Below are positions 1,614-44,570 of a stretch of DNA of 64,000 bases, in pieces. Within the stretch, counting starts at the first letter, position 1. Every line of letters begins with the position of its first letter. The notes under the pieces were generated by a model. It made no database searches. It worked only from the letters and a program-made list of their open reading frames with translations, and was not told the DNA's origin. The stretch comes from Alphaproteobacteria bacterium (GTDB lineage: Bacteria > Pseudomonadota > Alphaproteobacteria > UBA7887), in NCBI GenBank assembly GCA_965216755.1, contig CBDCGL010000011.1:4736001-4800000 (forward strand), written 5' to 3'. Position numbers and translations under genes: made by a program.

Positions 1614-3188
1614 ATGGCAACGGGGCGGGGAGATCACAGCGACGGGTGGCAAGCGGAAGTCGACACACTGGCCGACCGCCTGCGACGCGCGCGCGAGATG
1701 GGCGGAGCGGAAAAAATCGCCCGTCAACGCGCCGCCGGACGGATGACCGTGCGCGAGCGGATCGACGCCCTGCTGGACCCGGATAGTTTCCACGAAATCG
1801 GTGCCATCGCAGGGCGCGCGCTTTATGACGACGATGGCGTGTTGCAGGACTTTACTGCGTCGAACATCGTCTTTGGCCGTGGGCGGATCAGCGGCCGCCC
1901 GACGGTGGTGGTCGGCGACGATTTCACCATCCGGGGTGGGGCCGCGGACGCCAGTATCCACGCCAAGCAAATCGCCGCCGAACAAATGGCCAATGAATTG
2001 CGATTGCCCATCGTCCGTTTGGTGGAGGGTACGGGCGGCGGTGGCTCGGTGAAATCGGTCGAAATGGATGGTTACACATATGTGCCGGCGAATCCCGGCT
2101 GGAATTGGGTCGTCGACAACATGGCGACCGTGCCCGTGGTGTCTCTGGCTCTCGGGCCCGTGGCCGGCCTGGGCGCAGCCCGCATGGTCGCCAGCCATTA
2201 TTCGGTCATGGTGAAGGAGCTGTCGCAAATATTCGTGGCAGGTCCGCCCGTCGTGGCGCAGGTCGCGCAAAGCGTGACAAAAGAAGAGTTGGGCGGCGCG
2301 GCGATCCACGGCAGCAACGGCGTTGTCGACGATGTCGTCGAGTCAGAACAGGAGGCGTTCGCCAAGGCCCGGCGCTTTTTGTCATACATGCCCCAATCGG
2401 TGGACCAGCTTGCCGCGCGCGGCGCCGTGACGGACGCGCCCGGACGGCGCGAAGACTGGTTGATCAAGGCCGTGCCGCGCAATCGCCGACGCGTTTACAA
2501 AGTGCGCCCGATTATCGAGGCAATTGTTGACCAAGAAAGCTTTTTTGAGATCGGCGCCGGCTACGGGCGCTCGATCGTTGCCGGGCTCGCCCGCTTGGAC
2601 GGCTGGCCCGTCGGCGTCGTCGCGACGGACCCCTACGTGTTTGGGGGCGCCTGGACGGCCGACGCATCGTTTAAACTGATGCGTTTTGTCGATACGGCCG
2701 AAACGTTCCATTTGCCGGTGGTGCATTTCGTTGATTGCCCAGGCTTTATGATCGGTGTCGAGTCCGAGAAGGCCGCAACGATACGGCATGGGACGCGGGC
2801 CTTGTCGGCGATCTATCAGGCCACCGTGCCCTGGTGTTCGGTGATATTGCGTCGCGCCTTCGGTGTCGCCGGGGCCGCGCATGGCAACCACACGCGCTTT
2901 CATTATCGTTTCGCCTGGCCGTCGGGAGATTGGGGGTCGTTGCCGCTCGAGGGTGGCATTGAAGCGGCATACAAGGCCGATCTGGCCGAAAGCGACGATC
3001 CAGACGCCTTGCGCGCGGATATTGAACGGCGCCTCAATCATGTGCGCTCGCCGTTTCGGACCGCCGAACGTTTCGGTGTCGAAGACCTCATCGATCCGCG
3101 CGACACGCGACCCCTGCTGTGCGAGTTTGCCAATCTGGCGGCACCCTTACGGAAATTGGGATCGCGGCAGTTTGGCATGCGTCCCTAA
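1614..3188 (+). CDS. Acyl-CoA carboxylase carboxyltransferase (beta) subunit
   Basis: GRMTVRERID.LLD, DFTIRGG, EELGG..H, DCPGFMIG, IDPRDTR motifs. Confidence 0.9.
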   Translation: MATGRGDHSDGWQAEVDTLADRLRRAREMGGAEKIARQRAAGRMTVRERIDALLDPDSFHEIGAIAGRALYDDDGVLQDFTASNIVFGRGRISGRPTVVVGDDFTIRGGAADASIHAKQIAAEQMANELRLPIVRLVEGTGGGGSVKSVEMDGYTYVPANPGWNWVVDNMATVPVVSLALGPVAGLGAARMVASHYSVMVKELSQIFVAGPPVVAQVAQSVTKEELGGAAIHGSNGVVDDVVESEQEAFAKARRFLSYMPQSVDQLAARGAVTDAPGRREDWLIKAVPRNRRRVYKVRPIIEAIVDQESFFEIGAGYGRSIVAGLARLDGWPVGVVATDPYVFGGAWTADASFKLMRFVDTAETFHLPVVHFVDCPGFMIGVESEKAATIRHGTRALSAIYQATVPWCSVILRRAFGVAGAAHGNHTRFHYRFAWPSGDWGSLPLEGGIEAAYKADLAESDDPDALRADIERRLNHVRSPFRTAERFGVEDLIDPRDTRPLLCEFANLAAPLRKLGSRQFGMRP

Positions 3189-5568: not shown

Positions 5569-5644
5569 CGTTTGGCATCGAGAGCGATCTCTAGCGGCGT
5601 AATTGTGCGCCGCCGAGGTCGCGTCTGACCCAGAGCACCCGCAT

Positions 5645-6883
5645 ATGTTTATCCCTTTTATGCCGCCGACGTTGGCGCAACGTGCCGCAATGGTCGAAGC
5701 ACTTTTGGCGCCACCGGCGCCGATGCTGCCAATGATCACGCCGGATTCGCCGATTGGCCGACCGGCGCAACCGGCAGTTCCGTTTGGGGCACCGTTCGGT
5801 GCCTTCGCGCCAATCGGTCCGGGCACGCCACCAGTATCCGAGAACGCGCACCGGCCGGGACCGTCAGCATTTGCCGGGCCATTATTTGGCGTGCCAATAC
5901 CGACGCCACCGCTGCCTCCGGTCATTCCGTCGCGGCAGGCCATGGTGGAGGCGCTTTTACCCGGGGCCGTCGTGAGCAGCTTCGAAGGCACGCCGACGGC
6001 GCCCGGTGCGCGGGTCGCCCCGGCTTCGCCGCCAAACTCGATGCAGCGCGCCATGGTGGAGGCGCTGTCACCGGATGTCGCCAAGTTCTTTGGATTTTCG
6101 CCGAACGGAGGCCCTGATGGCCCGGGCGCAACGCATCGAACGCCGACGAACCCACGGTTCCTTCCCAATCTCATTCTTGCCTCAGTCGGCCGCGATGAGC
6201 CACCGCCACCACAGAGTGTGGATGTGTTCAGTGATTTGCTTAAGCAAGGTGAGCCGGAGAGGTTATGGCGGGAGCCGTCAAATCCGACGCAACGAGAAAT
6301 CGGAGAGTTCATACTTTCGATCGCCCCGGGGGTCGGCGAGGTGATGTCGGCGATGGAAGCATATGACGCCTATAAAACTGCTTATGCGGCTTTGCAAGAC
6401 GGTGATACCCAGCGCGCTTTGGTTGCGGCGGCAAAGGGCACAACGGCATTGTTTTCGGTCATTCCCGTTTTCGGCCGCACTGTCAAGCTCTCGAAACTGG
6501 GTGTGATCCTCGCGCTGCGGCTCTTCGACCACGCTGACTACAAAGGTCCACAAATCAAGGAGGGGGAGGCGGGTGGCGAAAGTGCGAGCAGAAATTTCCC
6601 AAAAAAGGAAAAAGAGGCGACTAAGGTTCGCGACATTACAAGCACATGCGTATTTTGTCGGCAAGCGGGCGTCGGGGTCCAAGTGGATCATGCCCACCCA
6701 AAAGCGCGCGGCGGCAACGCAACGGAAGCGAACGCACAATTGGCCTGCGCCCATTGCAATCCGTCTAAGCGCGATCGAGACGTGCCTGTCAATCCCCCAC
6801 CCGGATGGCAAGGTGATTGGCCACCATACTGGATTGCAAAATGGCCGGAACTGCGGGGTATAGGTTTGCGGGTCCCGAGGTAA
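5645..6883 (+). CDS. Polymorphic toxin-like protein: Pro-rich N-terminus, pre-toxin TG-like hinge, C-terminal HNH nuclease
   Basis: CVFC...VDH..PK.RGG......N.QLAC.HCN.SK HNH; LSIAPGVGE hinge; followed by DUF4265-like genes. Confidence 0.8.
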   Translation: MFIPFMPPTLAQRAAMVEALLAPPAPMLPMITPDSPIGRPAQPAVPFGAPFGAFAPIGPGTPPVSENAHRPGPSAFAGPLFGVPIPTPPLPPVIPSRQAMVEALLPGAVVSSFEGTPTAPGARVAPASPPNSMQRAMVEALSPDVAKFFGFSPNGGPDGPGATHRTPTNPRFLPNLILASVGRDEPPPPQSVDVFSDLLKQGEPERLWREPSNPTQREIGEFILSIAPGVGEVMSAMEAYDAYKTAYAALQDGDTQRALVAAAKGTTALFSVIPVFGRTVKLSKLGVILALRLFDHADYKGPQIKEGEAGGESASRNFPKKEKEATKVRDITSTCVFCRQAGVGVQVDHAHPKARGGNATEANAQLACAHCNPSKRDRDVPVNPPPGWQGDWPPYWIAKWPELRGIGLRVPR

Positions 6884-7117
6884 AATGGAACGGTGCGTCG
6901 TGAGGGTTCGGCACACTGAGGAGAAAATAATTTCTGTGCTGGGTCCTATCTCAATCCATCATTTCAGTTGTTGAGATCGCGCAAGGATTGAATTACTTTG
7001 ATGACAATTCAATCGCTGTCGCGTAGATGTAAATTCAACTGTATCTCGCGAATCAATGATGCGAATAGAATATTTGAGCAAAGAATCCTGTAGAGGATAA
7101 ACAAAAAGGAAATCCGT

Positions 7118-7600
7118 GTGGGAAAATACAAAATATTCGAGCATTCTCTGCCACTGTGGGAAGACAAAGGCACGACCGTCGTCCTCGCTTACGTAACTGA
7201 TGATGAGGACAAGAATGAGTGGGAAGCCCTTTGGGCGCGTCAGATTAGAAAAGATCACTATGAAATTTGCTGTATACCATTCTTTGCCTATAAAATTGCC
7301 TTAGGCGATATTGTCCGGACCAATTCGAGACGGGCCGTGGTGGGCGTCGCTGAGCCTTCTGGTCGGTCCGTGTTTCGGGTCTACTTTAAGCCGGAATTTG
7401 ATGCAAGCACGCGAGAAGCGCGCATTCGAGATGTATTGAACGGTATCGCGGACTTAGGTGGCGAAATGGAATTCTACCATGAGGATCTTCTCGGTATTGA
7501 CGCGAAGAACAAGGATATCGCTAACAAAGTCGTTGAGTTCCTGAAGGAATGGGAAGGTAACACAGAGTTATTATTATACGAGCACGGCAAATATCCATGA
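7118..7600 (+). CDS. DUF4265-like putative immunity protein, copy 1
   Basis: E.LWA......YEI.CIPFFAY.IALGDIV....PSGRS.FRV; lower GC. Confidence 0.75.
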   Translation: MGKYKIFEHSLPLWEDKGTTVVLAYVTDDEDKNEWEALWARQIRKDHYEICCIPFFAYKIALGDIVRTNSRRAVVGVAEPSGRSVFRVYFKPEFDASTREARIRDVLNGIADLGGEMEFYHEDLLGIDAKNKDIANKVVEFLKEWEGNTELLLYEHGKYP

Positions 7601-7870
7601 ATATCAACATCGTGGTCGGGGCCCGATTTCAGCGACTGTTAACCTAATGCATCATACTTCGCAGACTATGTTTTAAAATCACAATTTGTGCGTTTGGTAA
7701 TGTGTCACCGTAATCCAAAGTTTCGCACGTCGAGAAAAGGTGTTTCTGGAGCGGGTCAGGGCGCGGTCTTGCGAACGCCGGGTGTTTGATGCGGTTTACG
7801 TCGACATAGGGCGATAGCGGCACGGTGTTTTTGCAAGAAATCCTGTGGGCATCCAACAAGAGGTTCCCGC

Positions 7871-8353
7871 GTGAAAAAATACAAAATATTTAAGCATTCC
7901 CTGCCATTGTGGCATGACAAAGTCGATTCCTTCATCATGGCTGACGTAACTGATGATGAGGACGAAGATCAGTGGGAGAAGATCTGGACACGTCGCGTTG
8001 AGAAGGAGCGCTATGAAATCTGCTGCATACCATTCTTCACCTATAAAATTGCCTTGGGCGACATCGTCCGTGCAGATTGGATGGGGGCTTTCAGATGGGT
8101 TGTCGAGCCCTCCGGTCGGTCCGTGTTTCGGGTCTATTTTGAGCCGGAATTCGATCCAAGCACGCGAGAAGCGCGCATTCGAGATGTTTTGAACGGTATC
8201 GCTGACTTAGGTGGCGAAATGGAATTCTACAATGAGGACCTCCTCGCTATTGACGCAAAGAACAAGGATATCGCTGACAAAGTCATAGAGTTTCTGAAGG
8301 AATGGGAAGATAATACCGAACTGCTGGAGTATGAGCACGGCAAGTATCCTTGA
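7871..8353 (+). CDS. DUF4265-like putative immunity protein, copy 2
   Basis: Same length and motifs as 7118-7600; ~750-bp tandem duplication including flanks. Confidence 0.75.
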   Translation: MKKYKIFKHSLPLWHDKVDSFIMADVTDDEDEDQWEKIWTRRVEKERYEICCIPFFTYKIALGDIVRADWMGAFRWVVEPSGRSVFRVYFEPEFDPSTREARIRDVLNGIADLGGEMEFYNEDLLAIDAKNKDIADKVIEFLKEWEDNTELLEYEHGKYP

Positions 8354-8524
8354 ATATCAACATCCTGGTCGCGGTCAAATTACGGTGACAGTTTACTAAA
8401 TGCATCGTACTTTGGAGACTTTGTTTCATGCTGACAGTTTGTGCATTTAGTAAACTGTCACCGAAATACCGAAACGCCGAAATGGCGCAGACTTCACAGT
8501 GTGGAGCGCATACAAAAAAATAGC

Positions 8525-19572: not shown

Positions 19573-19631
19573 TGTATCGCATGACCGGACATCATCTGAC
19601 AGACAGCAAAATGATCGTGCATTCGGTGCTG

Positions 19632-20222
19632 TCATTTATCCGAACGGGAAGCACTTTCGATCATGACGGCAGTCAGGAACAAAGCGTCGTCGAAACCGAC
19701 GTAGCGGTGCCTTGAGACCTTTGAGATACGGTAGCAAATGGTATGTCGTAGCAAGGGACCAAAGAAGACGCTGTCATATGTGAATGCGAGGACGAAGGCG
19801 CAGTGGGCGCGTTCGAACGGTTCGCGCGTTTCGACCGGCAGGTCGTCGGCGATCTGACGCAGCTTTCGCCATTCCGGAAAACGATCTTCCCATTTGTCGG
19901 TTGGGATTTTCTTGGCGTGTTTTGGGCGCGCTGGAACAGCGGTCGCGGCCTTTGCCTGAAGACGACCCGTCAAGAGTAATTTGATAAGCGGCCAGAGACT
20001 TGTCGTTTCGTGGCGCACGAGAACCTTTAATCTAGAGCACGCCGAATGCGCTGGGGTGCGGAAATGAGGTCCGTCGTTCAAGCTTCCCTCAGCGCGAAGA
20101 AGGTCGTGCGTCAACTCAGATATGGTTTCCATATCGCACCACCGCGCGCGCATCCACATGCCGGCCAAAACAAGAACAAGGCTAAGGCAAAGTAATGAGA
20201 CAGAAGCAATCACCATTCCCAC
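19632..20222 (-). CDS. Membrane-anchored hypothetical protein, family A copy 1
   Basis: N-terminal TM; WRKLRQIADDLP..EPFERAHCAF..GPLLRHTICYRISK.SRHRYVGFDDALFL shared with copies 2 and 3. Confidence 0.7.
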   Translation of the reverse strand: MGMVIASVSLLCLSLVLVLAGMWMRARWCDMETISELTHDLLRAEGSLNDGPHFRTPAHSACSRLKVLVRHETTSLWPLIKLLLTGRLQAKAATAVPARPKHAKKIPTDKWEDRFPEWRKLRQIADDLPVETREPFERAHCAFVLAFTYDSVFFGPLLRHTICYRISKVSRHRYVGFDDALFLTAVMIESASRSDK

Positions 20223-20233
20223 GTCTCCGGCAA

Positions 20234-20503
20234 CTATGCTTCGTTGGTATTGGTATTGCTGGCACTTGCGCTCAGCAATGCTTGACTTTCTCGTTTCTGT
20301 CCTCTTTTCCGTATGACCGCCGCATATCGCCGTTCCCAGGCGCAGGCTGCGTCATCGACGACGATCGTAAAACGCCACATCTCCTTAATGAACCGGGTGA
20401 GCGCAGCGACAAAAAGCACGATTGAGACGACTAAGAAGAGATAGCTGGAATAGAAGGCTTGCAACCAATGTACGACGAACATCCAAGATTGTTCGAAAAA
20501 CAT
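20234..20503 (-). CDS. Single-TM small protein, family B copy 1
   Basis: HWLQAFYSSYLFLVVSI TM segment, basic tail, RBS AGGTG. Confidence 0.6.
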   Translation of the reverse strand: MFFEQSWMFVVHWLQAFYSSYLFLVVSIVLFVAALTRFIKEMWRFTIVVDDAACAWERRYAAVIRKRGQKRESQALLSASASNTNTNEA

Positions 20504-20689
20504 TCTTTCACCTAAGGCACACGTGAAGTTATCGGAGGCACCTAAGAGAATACGCTCCCAACGTACCCGAAAAAACGACTGGTGCATAGGCCCTCGGGAT
20601 GCCGGGGCGCCCCTGTCGGCGCAATGGTAACTTCTCGCATGGCGGCACATAGCCAGACACAGGATAAAATGATCCACCATTCGGTGCTG

Positions 20690-21274
20690 TCATTTATCCG
20701 AACGGGAAACACTTTCGATTATGATGGCCGTGAGGAACAAGGCGTCGTCGAAACCGACGTAGCGATGTCTAGAGACCTTTGAGATGCGGTAGCAAATGGT
20801 ATGTCGTAGCAAGGGACCGAGGAGAACGCTGTCGTAGGTTAGTGCGAGGAGGAAGGCGCAATGGGCGCGTTCGAACGGTTCGCGAATATCGTCGGAAAGG
20901 TCGTCGGCGATTTGACGCAGCTTCCGCCACTCCGGAAAACGATCTTCCCATTTGTCGGTGGGGATTTTCTTGGCGTGTTTTGGGCGCGCCGGAACAGCGG
21001 TCGCGGCCTTTGCCCGAAGACGACCCGTCAGGAGTAATTTGATAAGCGGCCAGAGACTCGTCGTCTCATAGGATACGAGAAACGTCAATTTAAAGCACGC
21101 CGTTTCCGCTGGGCTACCGAAATGAGGTCCGTCAATCAAGTTCCCCTCGGCACGAAACACGTCATGTTGCAACTCGGATTGGAATCCGAAATCGCGCGAC
21201 TTTGCGTGCGCCCACATGCCCGCCAGAATAAGAAAGAGGCTAAGGTAGAGTAATGATAGTGAGGCAATCACCAT
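20690..21274 (-). CDS. Membrane-anchored hypothetical protein, family A copy 2
   Basis: Tandem duplicate (~1.06-kb unit) of 19632-20222. Confidence 0.7.
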   Translation of the reverse strand: MVIASLSLLYLSLFLILAGMWAHAKSRDFGFQSELQHDVFRAEGNLIDGPHFGSPAETACFKLTFLVSYETTSLWPLIKLLLTGRLRAKAATAVPARPKHAKKIPTDKWEDRFPEWRKLRQIADDLSDDIREPFERAHCAFLLALTYDSVLLGPLLRHTICYRISKVSRHRYVGFDDALFLTAIIIESVSRSDK

Positions 21275-21333
21275 CGCCCGGTCTCCGATCGATGAGGCAT
21301 GTTTGTGCTGCCGGATGCGCTTGTTCGACCAGC

Positions 21334-21555
21334 TTAGAATTCACGTTTCTGACGCCCCTTCCGCAGGATCGCGTCGTCTCGTCGCTCGCAGGCGCAAACC
21401 GCCTGTTCTAGAGAAAATACGAGACGTCGGATTTTCTTGATGAATTGGGTCAGTGCCGAGACAAAAAGCAAGATTGAGACGACTAAGAAGAGATAGCTGG
21501 AATAGAAGGCGTGCAACCAATGTACGACGATCATCCAAGCTTGTTCGAAAAGCAT
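21334..21555 (-). CDS. Single-TM small protein, family B copy 2
   Basis: HWLHAFYSSYLFLVVSI; RBS AGGAG. Confidence 0.6.
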   Translation of the reverse strand: MLFEQAWMIVVHWLHAFYSSYLFLVVSILLFVSALTQFIKKIRRLVFSLEQAVCACERRDDAILRKGRQKREF

Positions 21556-21698
21556 TTGTTCTCCTAATTTTCCCGTGAAGTTATCGGGGGCACCTAAGAG
21601 AATACGCTCCCAACATACCCGAAAAAACGACTGATGCATAGGCCCTCGGTGTGCCGAGATGCCGCTATGCGTGTGGGCAAAAAGACGGAATCGCAACA

Positions 21699-23321
21699 AT
21701 GTTTCCTATCGCACGTCGACCCCTTGGCCGAATTGACGACCAATGGGATAGGTATCGCCAGGTGGTTAACGCTCTTGGCCCAAGTCGACTTGGGCAAACA
21801 GGTTTACCCGCGCAACCGAGTTTCCCCACCGAATTGCCGACACCGCCGGTGTTTGAGCCTTGGTTGGAAATGCTGGCGGTATTACCCGATTATTCGAACC
21901 CCGCGGTGCGCCGCGCCGCGGTCGAGGTGTTGATGGGTGCCGCACCCGCACAGGTTCCATCTCGTGAACCCGTTCGCCCGCCAATAATACCACCGCTTGG
22001 GGTCCCGGGCGTGCCGTTCGTCGATCCCCTCGGATTGGATCGTCAGCACATGGTGCCAGACAAAAAACTATTCGGGTTGCCGGTGCCACAACCGAAATTC
22101 AGCCGCGAACCGGTTCCCCCATCTCACCCAATCGGGACCCTTTCCGCGCCTCGCCAAGCGGGTTTGAGGACCGCGGCGCAAATGGGCACCGTGACCTCAG
22201 CATTTGGAGATCCACGCCAGACGCAACCGGACTTCTCACCACTGCATCGAGTCGCCGCCGTTTTTGCCGACGGCGAAGGGCGCGAGGCGGACAGCACTGG
22301 CCCGAACGAGCTCAGCAATGATGCGCTGACGCGGCTTGACGCGATTGAGTCAGCGGTGGCCGCGTTTGAAGCGGTCGCCCACACAGGTTTGATCGACGAG
22401 GGCGGCGCGGCGCTGATTGGCGCCGAACCACCGGCGGACGTGGTGCAGGCAGTGGGTGAGCTTGTTCTCTCCCTGCTGCCGGGCACCGGAGAGCTGTTGT
22501 CTGCCCGTGATGCCTATCAGGCGTTCCTAGCCGCTGATGCGGCACTCGACAATGACGAAGTTTTCGAGGCAATACAAAAGATTGCCGAGGGTACGTTCCA
22601 CACCCTTGGTGCAATGCCGGTCGTTGGCGTGGGTGTGCGGCTCACGCGCACAGCCGCCAAAGGCGCAATGCATCTGCAAAATAAGCTCAACGTGCGGCGG
22701 TGGATGCGACGGCGCCTTGTCGACAAACACGCGGTCATAACGCGCCATAGCAACGACGAAAAGTTTACCGAATGGGTGAAGGCTGTGCGCAGTGGTAAGG
22801 TCAATAAGACCCGATCGGTAGTGTGGGTCGCAAGCATCGACGACGATGTCGAGTTTGCAATCAGGACCGCCCTGAGGACCAAATTGCCCCTTGGCGGTAT
22901 CTTGATGTCCGACCGGGAAATCGGCCATATCTTCCGAGATGCCAAACGCGCAATGGTCGAGCCCGAGATCATCGAGAACTTGCGACGCCATATGCGTGAA
23001 CCGGCGATGATTTTGTTGGAAAGAAATCCGAAGTCTATTGGAAACACGTCTAAAGAAAACACGGTGCTGTTTGTTTTGGATTTGGGGAAGAATGATAACG
23101 CCGACGCGCTAGTCAAAGTCGCCGTGAAAGTTGATTTCGAGCTCAAGAAATTCGGCCTGGACCCGAGGACAGCCACGACACAGAGCAAGGCTGACGCCAC
23201 TGAAAAACGACGAGTCCGCACAATTTTGACGCCCTTTATCAGGACTGCGGGAACAGTGTCAGAAGCGCAACTCAACAACCCAAACAACTACATAAAAATC
23301 TACGAAAAGAAAAAGAAGTAA
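21699..23321 (+). CDS. Polymorphic toxin-like protein: Pro-rich N-terminus, pre-toxin TG-like hinge, C-terminal PBECR-like putative RNase
   Basis: LSLLPGTGELLSARDAY hinge homologous to 5645-6883; C-terminus (I.M.D..I.H..RD.K...P..IL....VLFV...KVAVKVD...IRTAG.V....L...Y) resembles domains at the end of MuF-type head proteins. Confidence 0.6.
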   Translation: MFPIARRPLGRIDDQWDRYRQVVNALGPSRLGQTGLPAQPSFPTELPTPPVFEPWLEMLAVLPDYSNPAVRRAAVEVLMGAAPAQVPSREPVRPPIIPPLGVPGVPFVDPLGLDRQHMVPDKKLFGLPVPQPKFSREPVPPSHPIGTLSAPRQAGLRTAAQMGTVTSAFGDPRQTQPDFSPLHRVAAVFADGEGREADSTGPNELSNDALTRLDAIESAVAAFEAVAHTGLIDEGGAALIGAEPPADVVQAVGELVLSLLPGTGELLSARDAYQAFLAADAALDNDEVFEAIQKIAEGTFHTLGAMPVVGVGVRLTRTAAKGAMHLQNKLNVRRWMRRRLVDKHAVITRHSNDEKFTEWVKAVRSGKVNKTRSVVWVASIDDDVEFAIRTALRTKLPLGGILMSDREIGHIFRDAKRAMVEPEIIENLRRHMREPAMILLERNPKSIGNTSKENTVLFVLDLGKNDNADALVKVAVKVDFELKKFGLDPRTATTQSKADATEKRRVRTILTPFIRTAGTVSEAQLNNPNNYIKIYEKKKK

Positions 23322-23325
23322 GGGC

Positions 23326-23424
23326 GGCCGCCATGGTGGTACGGACCTTCCACACAAACGATCGTGCCGCGAAATTCGCTGCACTATCCACCTGATCTCC
23401 GAATTCCCAGGTCACATGGCGGCC
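23326..23424 (+). ncRNA. Candidate four-way-junction (cloverleaf-like) RNA
   Basis: GGCCGCCATG/CATGGCGGCC closing stem enclosing three hairpins; begins after a 4-nt gap from the toxin stop codon. Confidence 0.4.
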
Positions 23425-23593
23425 TGGTCAAGGACGCACCGTGGTGGGTGCGCAACTTTCCACATAATGCGACGGTCACGCAAAACATGACCGCCGAACC
23501 GATCGGCGACGTCCGGTCGCACGGCGTGTCCACGACGTACGGAACAATGTATGCTATAGCATTAAATGATGCAAGGCGCGCCTTGGTGGTTCC

Positions 23594-23944
23594 TTGTATC
23601 GCCGAGCGAAGGTGTCGATGGGGGCAAAAGTGGAGACGATATCGGCCGCGGATGTCGAGATGGTGGGGGCAGCGTGTGGCGTCGCCGCGAGCTTCATTTT
23701 TGTGCGCATGGTGGTCCGTACGGGCGACACCTTCCGTTGGTGGAAGGAATCGCGGCAGAGTCATCGTGAGTACAGAGAGAAACATCCCCAGCTCGGGCCA
23801 TATGATCCCAGTGGCTTGTCGGAGGAGTTTCTGGAATTGATTATCAAGAACTTGCCGGCACTAAAGCTGAGTGCTTTTTTGTACTTGGTATGTTTTGTGT
23901 GTTTCTTGGCGTCGGCGATCTATCGGTTCTTCGCTTTGCCTTAG
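23594..23944 (+). CDS. Two-TM small protein, family C copy 1
   Basis: ISAADVEMVGAACG..AS...LY...FVCF.ASA.YR.FAL shared with 26629-27018; start uncertain. Confidence 0.65.
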   Translation: MYRRAKVSMGAKVETISAADVEMVGAACGVAASFIFVRMVVRTGDTFRWWKESRQSHREYREKHPQLGPYDPSGLSEEFLELIIKNLPALKLSAFLYLVCFVCFLASAIYRFFALP

Positions 23945-24037: not shown

Positions 24038-25177
24038 ATGCCCTGGAACGGATCCGGGACCTTTAGTCGCACCGACGGCACGCGCAACGGCGCGACCGTT
24101 TGGGAGCAGGCCAAGGCGGCGGCGGTAAAGATTGTCGCTGGCGATCACGACACACACGACCAGGATTTGGCGCAAGGCATCCAGAATTGTTTGGCCAAAG
24201 ATGGTCAAAACAGTCCATCCACGCATATCGACTGGGGTGGGCAACGGATCACCAATTTGGGTGCGCCGGCGGCCGCGACCGATGTGGCGCGCAACGATTT
24301 AAATGGCGTGAGCGCATCGACGGCGCGGACAAATTTGGGCTTGGGGGCGCTGGCGATACAGTCGACGATTAACACCGCGGACATCGGCGATAATGAAGTG
24401 ACGCCGGCCAAACTATCCCATGGCACCGCCAATCAAGTTCTGGCCATGGACGGCGGTTCGCCCGACTGGCGCGACCTGTCGACGGCGTTGGACAACGCGA
24501 TCGGTGGCACACAAGGCAATATTCTGTACCGGGGTGCCGCGACTTGGGACGTGTTGGCGCCGGGAACATCGGGGCAGTTTCTGGCGTCGCAGGGTGCGGG
24601 CGCTAACCCGCAATGGGTCGATGCACCTGTCGCCAGCCGCATGGTGTTGATCGCCACTCAGAATATCACCAGCGGCGTCGCACAAGTCGATTTCGCCAGC
24701 GGCATCGACGGCAGCTACGACGTGTACAAGCTGCTGATCGCGCTGGGTCACGTGGCCACGGATGGCGTCGATTTGTTGCTGCGTATCGGTACAGGTGGTG
24801 GACCAACCTATCAGGCGACCAACTATCGGCGGTCGGCTATGCGCGTTGGCGCCGATTCGACGACCGGCGTGCAATCGGACGGTGCCAGTTCAGCCACATC
24901 CATCAATTTGAGCGACGGCGGGACCAACACGATCGGCAACGCCGCGACGGAATGTTTCAATGGCGAGATAACGTTGTTCAATCCAGCCGACGGCACGCGT
25001 CACAAGCCGATCACGTATGACATGACGTGGCTGGAGCCGGATGGCGAAGTTAGCCGATCATCCGGTGCCGGTGTGTGGTCGGGCGGTGCCGACGCGATCA
25101 CGGCGCTGCGGTTGCTGGCCAGCAGCGGCAATATTGATGGCGGTCGGTTCAGTTTATTCGGGATCAACCATGGCTGA
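24038..25177 (+). CDS. Tail fibre/spike protein
   Basis: MPWNGSGTF anchor, D.A.GI..CL.KDG, ARTNLGLG, GT.GQ.L repeats, G.F.L.G C-terminus; RBS AGGAG. Confidence 0.8.
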   Translation: MPWNGSGTFSRTDGTRNGATVWEQAKAAAVKIVAGDHDTHDQDLAQGIQNCLAKDGQNSPSTHIDWGGQRITNLGAPAAATDVARNDLNGVSASTARTNLGLGALAIQSTINTADIGDNEVTPAKLSHGTANQVLAMDGGSPDWRDLSTALDNAIGGTQGNILYRGAATWDVLAPGTSGQFLASQGAGANPQWVDAPVASRMVLIATQNITSGVAQVDFASGIDGSYDVYKLLIALGHVATDGVDLLLRIGTGGGPTYQATNYRRSAMRVGADSTTGVQSDGASSATSINLSDGGTNTIGNAATECFNGEITLFNPADGTRHKPITYDMTWLEPDGEVSRSSGAGVWSGGADAITALRLLASSGNIDGGRFSLFGINHG

Positions 25178-25227
25178 GGTCTCGGTGCCATGAACAACAC
25201 CGTTGCGGCTGTCGCGTCGGCACCACC

Positions 25228-25300: not shown

Positions 25301-25879
25301 TCAGTCCTTTAACGTCATTTCTAGATCGGTTATGACGGCGGCCAGGAACAAAGCATCGTCAAAGCCGACATAGCGATGGCGTGAGATTTTGGAGATTCGA
25401 AAACAGATTGTATGGCGCAAGAAAGGGCCAAACAAAGTTGTACGGTAAGTCATCGCGAGAACGAAAGCACAGTGGGCGCGCTCGAATGGTTCACGAATAT
25501 CTTCGGGCAGATCATCAGCAATTTTACGAAGCTCTTGCCAACGCGTGAAAGTCACGTCCCACTGACTGAAAGGCAGTTTCTTGGCCTCTTCCGGTCGTTC
25601 CGGAATCGCGATCGAAGCCCAGAAACGCAAGTGACCAGTGATAAGAAGCCTAATGAGAGGCCACATTCCAAAATCTCGACATATGAGGTCGGCCAATGTT
25701 GAGCACGCTGAATCCGCTGGGCTGCCAAAATGATCACTTTTGGCGAAGATCCCTTGAACACGAAGTACATCGTGTTCCAAATCGGATCGAATTCTAAGGC
25801 CACGCAAAGTCGCACACGACCACATACCAACTAGAATCAAAACAAAGCTAACTGAAAGCAGCCACGTGGGGGTTGTCAA
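25301..25879 (-). CDS. Membrane-anchored hypothetical protein, family A copy 3 (diverged)
   Basis: IADDLPEDIREPFERAHCAFVLA..GPFLRHTICFRISK.SRHRYVGFDDALFL. Confidence 0.7.
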   Translation of the reverse strand: MTTPTWLLSVSFVLILVGMWSCATLRGLRIRSDLEHDVLRVQGIFAKSDHFGSPADSACSTLADLICRDFGMWPLIRLLITGHLRFWASIAIPERPEEAKKLPFSQWDVTFTRWQELRKIADDLPEDIREPFERAHCAFVLAMTYRTTLFGPFLRHTICFRISKISRHRYVGFDDALFLAAVITDLEMTLKD

Positions 25880-26324: not shown

Positions 26325-26582
26325 AGAACGTTTCCATTTGTGTGCTTCGCCTCGATCAACCTAGGAATTGGAAGGGTGCATTTCGACATGCAACTAACCC
26401 TCTGAGCGAACGTCTGCTCGGGCAAGCGGGCCCAAGGCTGCAATTGGGTGTCACCCTCGACATGTCGAAACTTCCCGTGATCGAGCCGTGGTCGGAAACT
26501 CCGACGGTTCTACTCGCTTGTTAGAATTCCCTGGTCCGCGATGCGGTGGTTGGTGTATCGAAGGGCACCGGCTTGGCACAGG
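26325..26582 (+). pseudogene. Decayed 5' end of the 21699 toxin gene
   Basis: LGQAG..Q......PVIEPWSE...VL..*N..VR aligns with LGQTG..Q......PVFEPWLE...VL..SN..VR; internal stop; remainder deleted. Confidence 0.6.
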
Positions 26583-26628
26583 GTTGCGCGGAGCAACCGT
26601 GACGTAGAGGGTAACCTTTACTATAGCA

Positions 26629-27018
26629 TTGAATAACGTGATGGAGAGTTGCGGAAAACTTGACGTGCCTAGCAGTCGTCGACATCTGCGGAAGGCGACA
26701 GTGAAAGTGATTTCCGCCGCAGACATTGAGATGCTCGGGGCCGCGTGCGGTATCATCGCGAGCCTAATTGTGGCACGCATTGTGGCCAAAGCAGGTCGTA
26801 CGATGCGCCGGATGTACGTGTCGCATAAGTGGGATCTTGAGCATTATGCTACTAGGCATCCGGATATCATGCAGGATCACTACAACAGATTGTCAGTACA
26901 AATGCTACGTTTGATTGTTGAAAATTTACGAGCAATTTCATTGAGTATTATTCTGTACTTCATTTTCTTTGTTTGTTTCTTTGCCTCTGCGATGTATCGA
27001 TATTTCGCCCTGACCTAA
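26629..27018 (+). CDS. Two-TM small protein, family C copy 2
   Basis: Paralogue of 23594-23944; start uncertain. Confidence 0.65.
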   Translation: MNNVMESCGKLDVPSSRRHLRKATVKVISAADIEMLGAACGIIASLIVARIVAKAGRTMRRMYVSHKWDLEHYATRHPDIMQDHYNRLSVQMLRLIVENLRAISLSIILYFIFFVCFFASAMYRYFALT

Positions 27019-27112
27019 AGCACAGACCTTGACTACAATTAACATGGAAGCCGATGCCGTGTGGCAGCGGCTTTTTTTTGCTGGCAAATCAAAATAGGAG
27101 GGGAAGAAAACG

Positions 27113-27400
27113 ATGCTCTGGAAAAAGTCCGCGATCTTTAATCGCATCGCGCGCACGCGATACGGCGACACGGCGAATATTGAAGGCGAGATAACGATGT
27201 TCAATCCAGCCGACGGCACGCGTCACAAGCCGATCACGTATGACATGACGTGGCTGGAGCCGGATGGCGAGGTTAGCCGATCGTCCGGCGCCGGTGTGCG
27301 GTCGGGCGGTGCCGACGCGATCACTGCGCTGCGTTTGCTGGCCAGCAGCGGCAATATTGATGGCGGTCGGTTCAGTTTGTTCGGGATCAATCACGGCTGA
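27113..27400 (+). pseudogene. Internally deleted tail-fibre copy (degenerate N-terminus fused in frame to the last 71 aa)
   Basis: MLWKKSAIFNRIARTRYG ~ MPWNGSGTFSRTDGTRNG, then near-identical C-terminus; retains RBS. Confidence 0.7.
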
Positions 27401-27411
27401 GGATAACACAT

Positions 27412-29566: not shown

Positions 29567-29959
29567 TTAGCGATTTGCATGGTGCCACGATAAGGCCCAG
29601 TGTGTCGACTGGAAGTTCGGAAGCAGGACGATCGTGCCAAAGAATCCCGGATGATGTAGGAAAACGAAAGAAGACAGGTTGAGCAACAAGACCAAAATCA
29701 TGAATGATCTACGTGGGCGATGCTCAATTATCATGGCAATATTGCTGACGGTCATAACAAAAACGACAACATAGATGGCCAAAGGATACAGATAATAGTG
29801 AAACGATTCGTGTTTAGACCAGTGAATGACCATAAATGGCAAGACAACGTTCACGATCATCCACGTTGGCGCGAAAGTTAGAGCAGTGTCAGACAATATT
29901 GAACCATTCTGTTCGCGGCCCGGCGTCGCGAGCCGCCCGACTAATGTGGTCGTCCACAT
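29567..29959 (-). CDS. Three-TM protein, family D copy 2
   Basis: Paralogue of adjacent ORF; lower GC. Confidence 0.55.
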   Translation of the reverse strand: MWTTTLVGRLATPGREQNGSILSDTALTFAPTWMIVNVVLPFMVIHWSKHESFHYYLYPLAIYVVVFVMTVSNIAMIIEHRPRRSFMILVLLLNLSSFVFLHHPGFFGTIVLLPNFQSTHWALSWHHANR

Positions 29960-30497
29960 GGATTCTCATTGGGGGTCGCCCGCAGTTTGCGAACCCGCGG
30001 GGCCGGGCGCATTTCCGCCAATCTCGGCGTCGCTGTCCTTGGCCGTATTCCCGATACGCCCCGCGGACAGCGACTTGATCTTGACAGAAATGCGCTGCGG
30101 CAGAATGATTCAATATTGTCTGACACTGCTCTGCAGTGTTGCTGACGTCATGAGAGCGACGACCGTCGATATCTATTTTTCCAATCCGCGCGAACCAAAA
30201 TCTTCAATAACGAACAGCTTTGTGGACGCATTGTCCTGATGCCCGCGCATTGCACCGCTCAAATCCGGACCAAGCGCCAGGAGAATGAAAGCCTGTTCAT
30301 CCAACACAACGGCGCATACCGGCCACTCTCACGCCGCACGCCAAAACGACCGCGACCGGGCAGTCTTTCCAATTCCCCTACGCGCCACCGTAACAGCAAA
30401 CACCTATGTGCACGGCGCCAATAGCCCGGCGATCATGAGTTGACCAATGACGAAATTATAACGGACGCTGTCGCGTATGGGAAGTGATTCGTTCGAT

Positions 30498-44493: not shown

Positions 44494-44570
44494 GCGCCCG
44501 TAGCTCAGCTGGATAGAGCACGAGCCTTCTAAGCTTGGGGTCGCAGGTTCGAGTCCTGCCGGGCGCGCCA
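44494..44570 (+). tRNA. tRNA-Arg (TCT)
   Basis: GCGCCCG acceptor, TAGCTCAGCTGGATAGAGC D arm, CTTCTAA loop, GGTTCGAGTCC, CCA end. Confidence 0.97.

Follow-up and report, generated by a model that had tools for sequence, protein, structure and literature searches.

The question that this locus raises is what lies directly behind the gene for a predicted phage RNase; namely, whether a cloverleaf-like structure that follows its stop codon is a genuine RNA, which strand encodes it and what it may do for the protein beside it. We analysed a stretch of 64,000 nucleotides (the window) of an alphaproteobacterial genome, in which 9–30 kb is the late region of a podovirus-like prophage with a large terminase, a P22-type portal, an SU10-type capsid protein and an adaptor. 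The features on which the argument turns are the following.

21699–23321, plus strand: 540-amino-acid virion-type polymorphic protein (P0002), from the list of open reading frames (ORFs) and the translation; the frame is also open from a GTG at 21651

22716–23318, plus strand: MuF-C/PBECR-like domain of this protein (predicted BECR-fold RNase) with a conserved His in 'EIGHIFRDAK', from protein alignments

23326–23424, minus strand: putative RNA element copy 1, tRNA-shaped and promoter-distal, with a 10-bp acceptor-like stem, a D-like arm, a long 3-nt-capped arm in the place of the anticodon arm and a T-like arm; from folds, covariance model R1 and nhmmer

about 23432–23531 (R1 match to 23533), minus strand: putative RNA element copy 2, tRNA-shaped, promoter-proximal and more degenerate; from an inverted-repeat scan, R1 and nhmmer

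23546–23574, minus strand: weak promoter candidate for the two-copy RNA (TTGCAT, 17 nt, TACATT)

23594–23944, plus strand: next gene downstream, encoding a small protein, apparently two-helix and hydrophobic as judged by eye; from the ORF list

The protein upstream, P0002, has a Pro-rich N terminus, a conserved linker (about residues 245–330) and a C-terminal MuF-C/PBECR-like domain. A word-index search for close relatives matched an identical 540-amino-acid protein alone, and a full phmmer search returned 42 relatives, most of which have only the central linker in common with it; the C-terminal 200 residues are common to 7 of the 42. Among these seven, P0040 is a MuF protein with Phage_Mu_F, and P0004 and P0005 match PBECR1–3 below threshold. 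The Pfam model MuF_C (PF18819) matches P0002 itself with 14.2 bits (E = 0.051), below its cut-off of 27.6, and a MuF N-domain was not found in the protein with Pfam or PHROG. The domain of the relative P0003 matches, in tblastn, the C termini of Mu F-like genes annotated as 'minor head protein and DNA pilot'. As far as the available text of the sources goes, MuF-C is a phage BECR-fold RNase (PBECR) domain of which Mu's own copy is predicted to be inactive, MuF-type proteins are virion components (both Iyer et al. 2017, PMC5512222), and the PBECRs are placed in a 'Colicin-like' group (2026 preprint, 10.64898/2026.08.28.747851).

An AF2 model of the domain made from 22 sequences reached a pLDDT of 82.6 (a single-sequence prediction, at 39.8, was useless). 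Foldseek returned nothing for it in the PDB at E ≤ 0.001. Its top neighbours in VIA-align were BrnT (4.8), a Salmonella toxin (4.4), colicin D (4.4) and CdiA-CT NC101 (4.3), with RelE (4.0) and the C-terminal domain of colicin E5 (3.5) further down; nearly all of the top matches are RNase toxins of the BECR/RelE type, and their scores, all below the Z of about 8 that is the safe level of the tool, are too low to count alone. The label 'RNase-like', which draws on sequence families and weak structural neighbours, is reasonable but unproven, and we infer the label 'toxin' for the domain of P0002.

The stop codon of the gene, TAA, occupies 23319–23321. After a 4-nt gap, GGCCGCCATG (23326–23335) is perfectly complementary over 10 bp to CATGGCGGCC (23415–23424), and this outer stem encloses the hairpins GTGG/CCAC (23336–23353), an imperfect one at 23364–23384 with one C·T mismatch, and ACCTG/CAGGT (23390–23412). 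A first-pass annotation of the same DNA had described the position, the gap, the stem and the three hairpins, all of which we find in the sequence, and had proposed folding the stretch with RNAfold, which returned the same four-way junction as the minimum-energy fold of the plus strand (−41.8 kcal/mol, z = −4.41, with 0 of 200 shuffles as low). Four helices surround one junction in the minimum-energy folds of both strands. The outer stem carries nearly the whole fold signal, because 99-nt windows offset from copy 1 by 5–15 nt have a fold energy that is average for their GC content. The long arm has 9 bp and a loop of 3 nt rather than the 5 bp and 7-nt loop of an anticodon arm, and the loops of both window copies, at 10–12 nt, are not canonical T-loops and D-loops. 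Rfam, including the tRNA family RF00005, had no match to 23100–23700 at E ≤ 10, and ARAGORN called nothing at the element; its sole call in the window is a tRNA-Arg at 44494.

The simplest account is that the structure is a DNA-level feature (a recombination or insertion site, or a module boundary) or a functionless chance inverted repeat. The 64-kb window has 29 perfect inverted repeats of 10-mers whose spacers do not exceed 100 nt (about 13 separate places), against an expectation of 10.7 ± 6.0 from 30 first-order Markov shuffles, so repeats of this kind are expected by chance, and the region is rich in duplicated modules. Taken alone, without its relatives, the structure of copy 1 is within chance and is weak evidence. 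What raises it above chance is its conservation in homologous loci, described below. The 261-nt element region is also single-copy in the genome by BLAST, which speaks against a repeat or mobile element; an 11-mer of the outer stem showed no enrichment (7 matches, a count attained by 3 of 100 shuffles), and no similar DNA was found in 22 other genomes of the same family.

As judged by comparison of sequences and predicted folds, the window element is a member of a conserved family of four-way-junction RNAs of about 100 nt that lie behind genes with MuF-C/PBECR domains. The loci compared were 30 viral loci from a protein-guided search and 7 genomes matched among 400 sampled Alphaproteobacteria, in which elements were located with an inverted-repeat scan and folds. 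A search for related loci with the wide alignment A1 gave no conserved stretch; smaller alignments gave results. In about 20 other loci, homologous genes with a MuF-C/PBECR domain carry the same element at their 3′ end. The range takes in prophages of Alphaproteobacteria, Pseudomonas phage B3, phages of Pasteurella and Mu-like prophages of E. coli, and the position of the element is the same in at least five bacterial groups. The relatives measure 76–124 nt, have outer stems of 8–14 bp and start at the stop codon or within about 23 nt of it. A Rhodospirillales MAG (L011) has one copy at the gene end, a Mu-like head module of Rhizobium lusitanum (L018) has one between its F-like and protease genes, and an IMG/VR contig (L012) has three in tandem. 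Gene ends in L022, L023, L033, L046, L047, L048, L049, L050 and the L025 group also carry the element, as do those of B3, Pmp9 and AFS-2018a. All six usable alphaproteobacterial loci (from the seven matched genomes) have it, two of them in two copies. In E. coli, a close sequence of the L025 type is present in 176 of 5,426 complete genomes (227 by a looser search). The E. coli relative also appears in 15 RNA runs from 5 studies, as contigs of 1–11 kb that show no strand, ends or level. Rfam detected no known RNA family among alpha-type relatives, and ARAGORN called nothing in 13 loci.

The family varies in copy number and sequence. Tandem arrays are common, as at L054 (2010–2113 and 2209–2318) and in the three copies of L012; L056, once oriented, has two successive gene ends of the MuF-C type with an element at each (1985–2081 and 2222–2327). 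The interiors of the L056 and L057 elements are nearly identical, whereas their outer stems are entirely different. At L024 there is an 8-bp inverted repeat at 2983–3109, where the refined covariance model R2 finds nothing.

Models built elsewhere recover the window copies. R1, made only from L018 and the two L054 copies and including no window sequence, matches the window at 23323–23429(−) with 37.9 bits (E = 3.9 × 10−6) and at 23432–23533(−) with 22.4 bits (E = 0.014). Searched against the whole 5.0-Mb genome, it places copies 1 and 2 as the top two of three matches at E ≤ 1 (E = 1 × 10−4 and 0.043). An nhmmer profile without window rows ranks copy 2 best in the 64-kb window (E = 0.01) and copy 1 second (E = 0.1), and with an alphaproteobacterial-only profile copy 2 reaches E = 3.5 × 10−4. 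Run with filters off against 12 loci, R2 has as its top six matches the elements of L011, L055, L056 (both), L059 and L023; it misses L058 and the enterobacterial type and finds L057 only at E = 3.7, and the L058, L057 and enterobacterial elements were assigned by the inverted-repeat scan and folds instead. Because R2 fails on the E. coli type, homology between the alphaproteobacterial and E. coli subfamilies rests on context, layout and graded similarity.

The first-pass annotation had also proposed a search for covariation on the 3′ flanks of homologues, and it is found there: in a 15-row alignment (A15), double changes occur in 15 of the 18 pairs, which 0 of 500 shuffles reached, and 95.4% of cells are paired compared with 66.5% in shuffles and 32–52% in slid controls, with the caveat for both counts that the alignment was fitted to the model. 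A kissing interaction between D-loop and T-loop in the alphaproteobacterial subfamily found no clear backing, as the complementarity of own loops did not clearly exceed that of cross-pairings (permutation P = 0.09). The covariation, the matches from covariance models built elsewhere, the single genomic copy and the shared position across bacterial groups all stand against a DNA-level feature or a chance repeat, which we disfavour as highly improbable.

The first-pass annotation had described the cloverleaf behind the toxin gene as a candidate RNA antitoxin or tRNA decoy. On the sense strand, it would be the untranslated tail of the toxin mRNA and would serve, in cis or in trans, as antitoxin or stabiliser. 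The window's plus strand folds well, with the energy and z score given above, and the outer stem starts 4 nt past the stop codon here and overlaps it in L012 and L055, as such an extension might. The relatives nevertheless point to the other strand. In enterobacterial and Pasteurella copies, the strand that does not encode the protein has the T-arm and D-loop of a textbook tRNA, with the anticodon loop replaced by a tetraloop-capped stem; throughout the family the caps are 3–5 nt long (UCCG or UUCG in E. coli, GCGA and UUCU in L012, a 3-nt loop in the window). The Rfam tRNA model RF00005 matches the opposite strand of L046(−) with 31.1 bits (gathering score 29) and of L049(−) with 27.4 bits, with an insertion of 20–27 nt in the anticodon arm of both alignments. 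In E. coli prophages, RefSeq annotates a 'tRNA-OTHER' 1 nt past the stop of the F-like gene for the minor head protein, on the opposite strand.

Pairing and fold energies in the alphaproteobacterial subfamily lean the same way. Read on the minus strand, the paired cells of A15 comprise 238 Watson–Crick, 13 G·U and 3 A·C pairs; a symmetric hand tally of the outer stems alone gives G·U against A·C as roughly 13 to 7, which is weaker than the count from an alignment fitted to the minus strand. Five wobble positions in the outer stems of L012 are G·U on the minus strand and A·C mismatches on the plus strand. The minus strand has the more stable fold in 12 of 14 copies, and the plus-strand folds of two L012 copies (L012b and L012c) are poor (z = +0.08 and −0.39). 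Promoter-like sites add to this picture: the best σ70-like match on the tRNA-like strand ends 3–9 nt before the outer stem in 18 of 24 copies, the exceptions being mostly downstream copies of tandem arrays, and 12 of the 24 score at least 9/12, a level reached by 1 of 24 on the opposite strand and by 2.7% of random windows. Because the T-loops and D-loops of relatives, the promoter-like sites and the G·U excess all fall on the opposite strand, the element is probably a separate small-RNA gene convergent to the RNase gene and not a 3′ extension of the toxin mRNA; with the RefSeq tRNA calls on that strand as well, the sense-strand reading is very unlikely. Of the earlier proposal, a cloverleaf RNA that is real, conserved, tied to the RNase-like domain and lost with it stands, whereas a place in the toxin mRNA is not supported. 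The accompanying theme of tRNA mimicry has gained ground, as relatives reach the Rfam tRNA model and are annotated as tRNA-OTHER.

Two annotations in other phages touch on the family. The tRNA-like element of B3 coincides with ORF34 (L061 1984–2082), which lies between the F-like and the G-like gene and is annotated as a 32-amino-acid hypothetical protein, but probably does not encode one. At L066 1479–1678, in an E. coli prophage, a 'tRNA-OTHER' lies beside a 'tRNA-Tyr', after a mor-type gene and away from any F-like gene; this 'tRNA-Tyr' is 85% identical to the F-linked element, is without a 7-nt anticodon loop and is rejected by ARAGORN. Because this pair lies elsewhere, the RNA family is not confined to the position behind F and the linkage is not absolute.

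The window has two tandem copies, the second of which was absent from the first-pass annotation. Copy 2 has a 12-bp outer stem with one G·U and one A·C pair, and 7 nt separate it from copy 1. The −10 box of the promoter candidate ends 14 nt before copy 2, and there is no promoter-like site directly before copy 1. The candidate scores 7/12, which is not above the window background; its backing is analogy to the relatives. The weak site upstream of copy 2 and the 7-nt spacing suggest that copy 2 and copy 1 may form one two-unit transcript from one weak promoter. No consistent U-tract of an intrinsic terminator was found downstream of the RNA across loci; a U-rich run in the window was rejected as a terminator, as it derives from Lys codons at the end of the protein. 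On the plus strand, no further stop interrupts the frame of the RNase gene for 173 codons beyond the TAA (23322–23840), with an ORF at 23364–23840 in the same frame. Read-through to 23840 was considered and dropped, as relatives have no such extension, and the open frame is probably due to chance, in a GC-rich stretch whose opposite strand encodes RNAs.

The presence of the element appears to track the catalytic His of the neighbouring domain. The His that aligns with the window motif is present in 18 of the 18 element-bearing genes examined and in 1 of 5 element-less genes, a strong pattern rather than a statistic, as the phage lineages are related and the table overstates their independence. 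The residue is deleted in Mu and in Shewanella MuM16-1, replaced in JBD67 and absent in L024; the exception is Ralstonia phage YO088_1, which keeps it without an adjacent element. The contrast is visible within one genus, in which B3 has both His and element and Pseudomonas phage JBD67 has neither. In the window, P0002 has the His and the element follows its stop codon by 4 nt. As the element goes with the catalytic His, the antitoxin reading is strengthened, in which the element would be a small antisense RNA that mimics tRNA and so neutralises the phage RNase or regulates it; we give this reading about an even chance of being correct.

The convergent RNA could instead act mainly by pairing with the part of the late mRNA to which it is fully complementary, between the RNase gene and the next one, and so trigger cleavage or block read-through and tune the RNase gene or the virion genes downstream, resembling type I convergent pairs. 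This would suit an RNA that is antisense within a co-directional late operon, promoter-like sites that aim into the 3′ end of the protein gene and, in Mu-like prophages, an element between F and G of one operon. Simple pairing needs no fold, yet the stems covary and enterobacterial members keep their T-loop and D-loop; the co-occurrence with the catalytic His is also left unexplained, and we regard regulation by pairing as possible but unlikely. Another option is a tRNA-like RNA with a different job, as a cofactor, guide, packed cargo or decoy against host anticodon nucleases, or as the substrate of the domain. Such roles would fit a tRNA shape without an anticodon loop, the related tRNA-like genes elsewhere in an E. 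coli prophage and the virion location of MuF-type proteins (PMC5512222, in its available text). A pure anti-defence decoy, however, need not follow the His of a neighbouring domain, an argument that does not bear on a cofactor or cargo; as a group, these roles seem to us unlikely.

The prophage offers its own comparison of toxin-like modules. The small protein encoded at 23594–23944 belongs to no Pfam or PHROG family, and its paralogue at 26695–27015 (48% identical) survives in a duplicate without the RNase domain; on this pattern it is probably not an immunity protein for the RNase. The duplicate in question, a decayed copy of the toxin module at 26381–27397, consists of an N-terminal remnant (26381–26605), the ORF paralogue and the end of a tail-fibre-like gene (27170–27397, 92%), and it lacks both the RNase domain and the RNA element. 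Their joint absence had been pointed out in the first-pass annotation, as had the small ORFs downstream of an HNH toxin, and both descriptions agree with what we see; the joint loss also speaks for the link between domain and element. The HNH protein (5603–6883) has the linker domain of the RNase protein (6236–6544, 31%) and is followed by two DUF4265 ORFs (7118–7600 and 7871–8353); with 5603–8353, the prophage has a second module that is polymorphic-toxin-like.

Further repeats and structures occur in the window. A tandem duplication at 19577–21692, with units of about 1,058 bp that are 85–86% identical, contains minus-strand ORFs at 19632–20222 and 20690–21274, and a third paralogue of these lies at 25301–25879 (56–57% amino acid identity); none of the three matches a Pfam or PHROG family. 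The pair 24939–25179 and 27162–27402 was considered as a DGR pair and rejected, as its 21 mismatches are of all kinds and not A-specific. A long near-perfect palindrome lies at 8383–8454, and a 32-nt inverted repeat (97% complementary) at 29880–29911 and 30101–30132. Several 99-nt windows, at about 5531(+), 30001(−) and 41021(+), have folds far more stable than their GC content predicts.

BECR RNases of the colicin D and E5 kind cut tRNA anticodon loops. The family RNA has the look of a pseudo-substrate inhibitor, because it is tRNA-shaped without an anticodon loop, has a promoter-like site and is retained with the catalytic His. Under the antisense tRNA-mimic reading, the small-RNA gene would be convergent to the RNase gene, with its own promoter and a transcript that begins with the first base of the acceptor-like stem or close to it; a single weak promoter in the window would serve copy 2 first and copy 1 after it. 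The RNA would fold to a tRNA-like L-shape and bind the RNase domain as an uncleavable pseudo-substrate, and the enzyme would be kept harmless in the producing cell, in the late phase or in a lysogen, until virions take up the protein. The RNA would then be an immunity factor that acts in the manner of a type III antitoxin but has the build of a tRNA mimic. The fuller proposal, which we put forward tentatively and hold to be somewhat more doubtful than not, is that this would be a new class of RNA immunity: a constitutive, antisense, tetraloop-capped tRNA mimic that may block the tRNA-binding surface of a virion-packed, tRNA-cutting BECR RNase, would shield the cell that makes it and might guard lysogens against superinfection, and would be gained and lost together with its enzyme from E. 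coli Mu-like to alphaproteobacterial podovirus-like prophages.

Known systems resemble parts of this arrangement. The closest are the 'tRNA-OTHER' genes of E. coli Mu-like prophages, which exist as RefSeq/PGAP annotation only; they share position, orientation, four-arm layout and partner domain with the window element, but they have a canonical T-arm and D-loop and measure about 80 nt, whereas the window copies are about 100 nt long and invisible to Rfam and ARAGORN. Type III toxin–antitoxin systems (ToxIN) also have a structured RNA, often tandem, and the window RNA would likewise neutralise the endoribonuclease of the adjacent gene. The short pseudoknot repeats of ToxI precede the toxin gene, share its transcript and are cut by the toxin. 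The window RNA, by contrast, is tRNA-shaped, lies downstream and, on the strand evidence, would be antisense and convergent, so that the upstream, co-transcribed arrangement that defines type III is absent; promoter-like sites occur in its family, and its partner is a BECR-type domain that ends a large virion protein. The colicin D, colicin E5 and CdiA-CT tRNases are the best, although weak, structural neighbours of the domain model; their inhibitors are proteins, whereas the gene here is followed by no conserved small immunity ORF but by an RNA that resembles the presumed substrate in shape. The tRNA-like domain of tmRNA, YrlA-type Y RNAs and mascRNA also have the acceptor, T and D parts of a tRNA and no anticodon loop for decoding; they share this architecture but differ in partners and context, and the Rfam families of these kinds had no match in the window or the relatives.

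MuF toxins of temperate phages likewise combine a virion-module protein with a variable, toxin-like C-terminal domain and an immunity function expected immediately downstream, as far as the available text of Jamet et al. 2017 (PMC5576092) describes them; the window protein differs in having no MuF N-domain. For MuF polymorphic toxins, that text names small downstream ORFs as candidate immunity proteins and does not mention RNA. Nor do the available texts of PMC5512222, PMC5576092, PMC10690425, PMC5389517 and 10.64898/2026.08.28.747851 describe an RNA partner, and a full-text literature search, with subscription journals and supplements outside its scope, returned none for MuF-C/PBECR. The RNA family is widespread and, within the literature searched, previously undescribed.

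For the phages that carry them, MuF-C/PBECR domains are predicted RNases whose immunity partner is unreported, and the element offers a partner that can be tested. A tRNA-shaped companion of the catalytically intact form is a strong hint that the substrate is tRNA. The family accounts for hundreds of orphan 'tRNA-OTHER' calls in E. coli and for at least one doubtful ORF (ORF34 of B3), and members that have diverged too far for tRNA finders can be recovered through gene context and a covariance model. If the proposed mechanism is true, this would possibly be the first RNA antitoxin to act by substrate mimicry.
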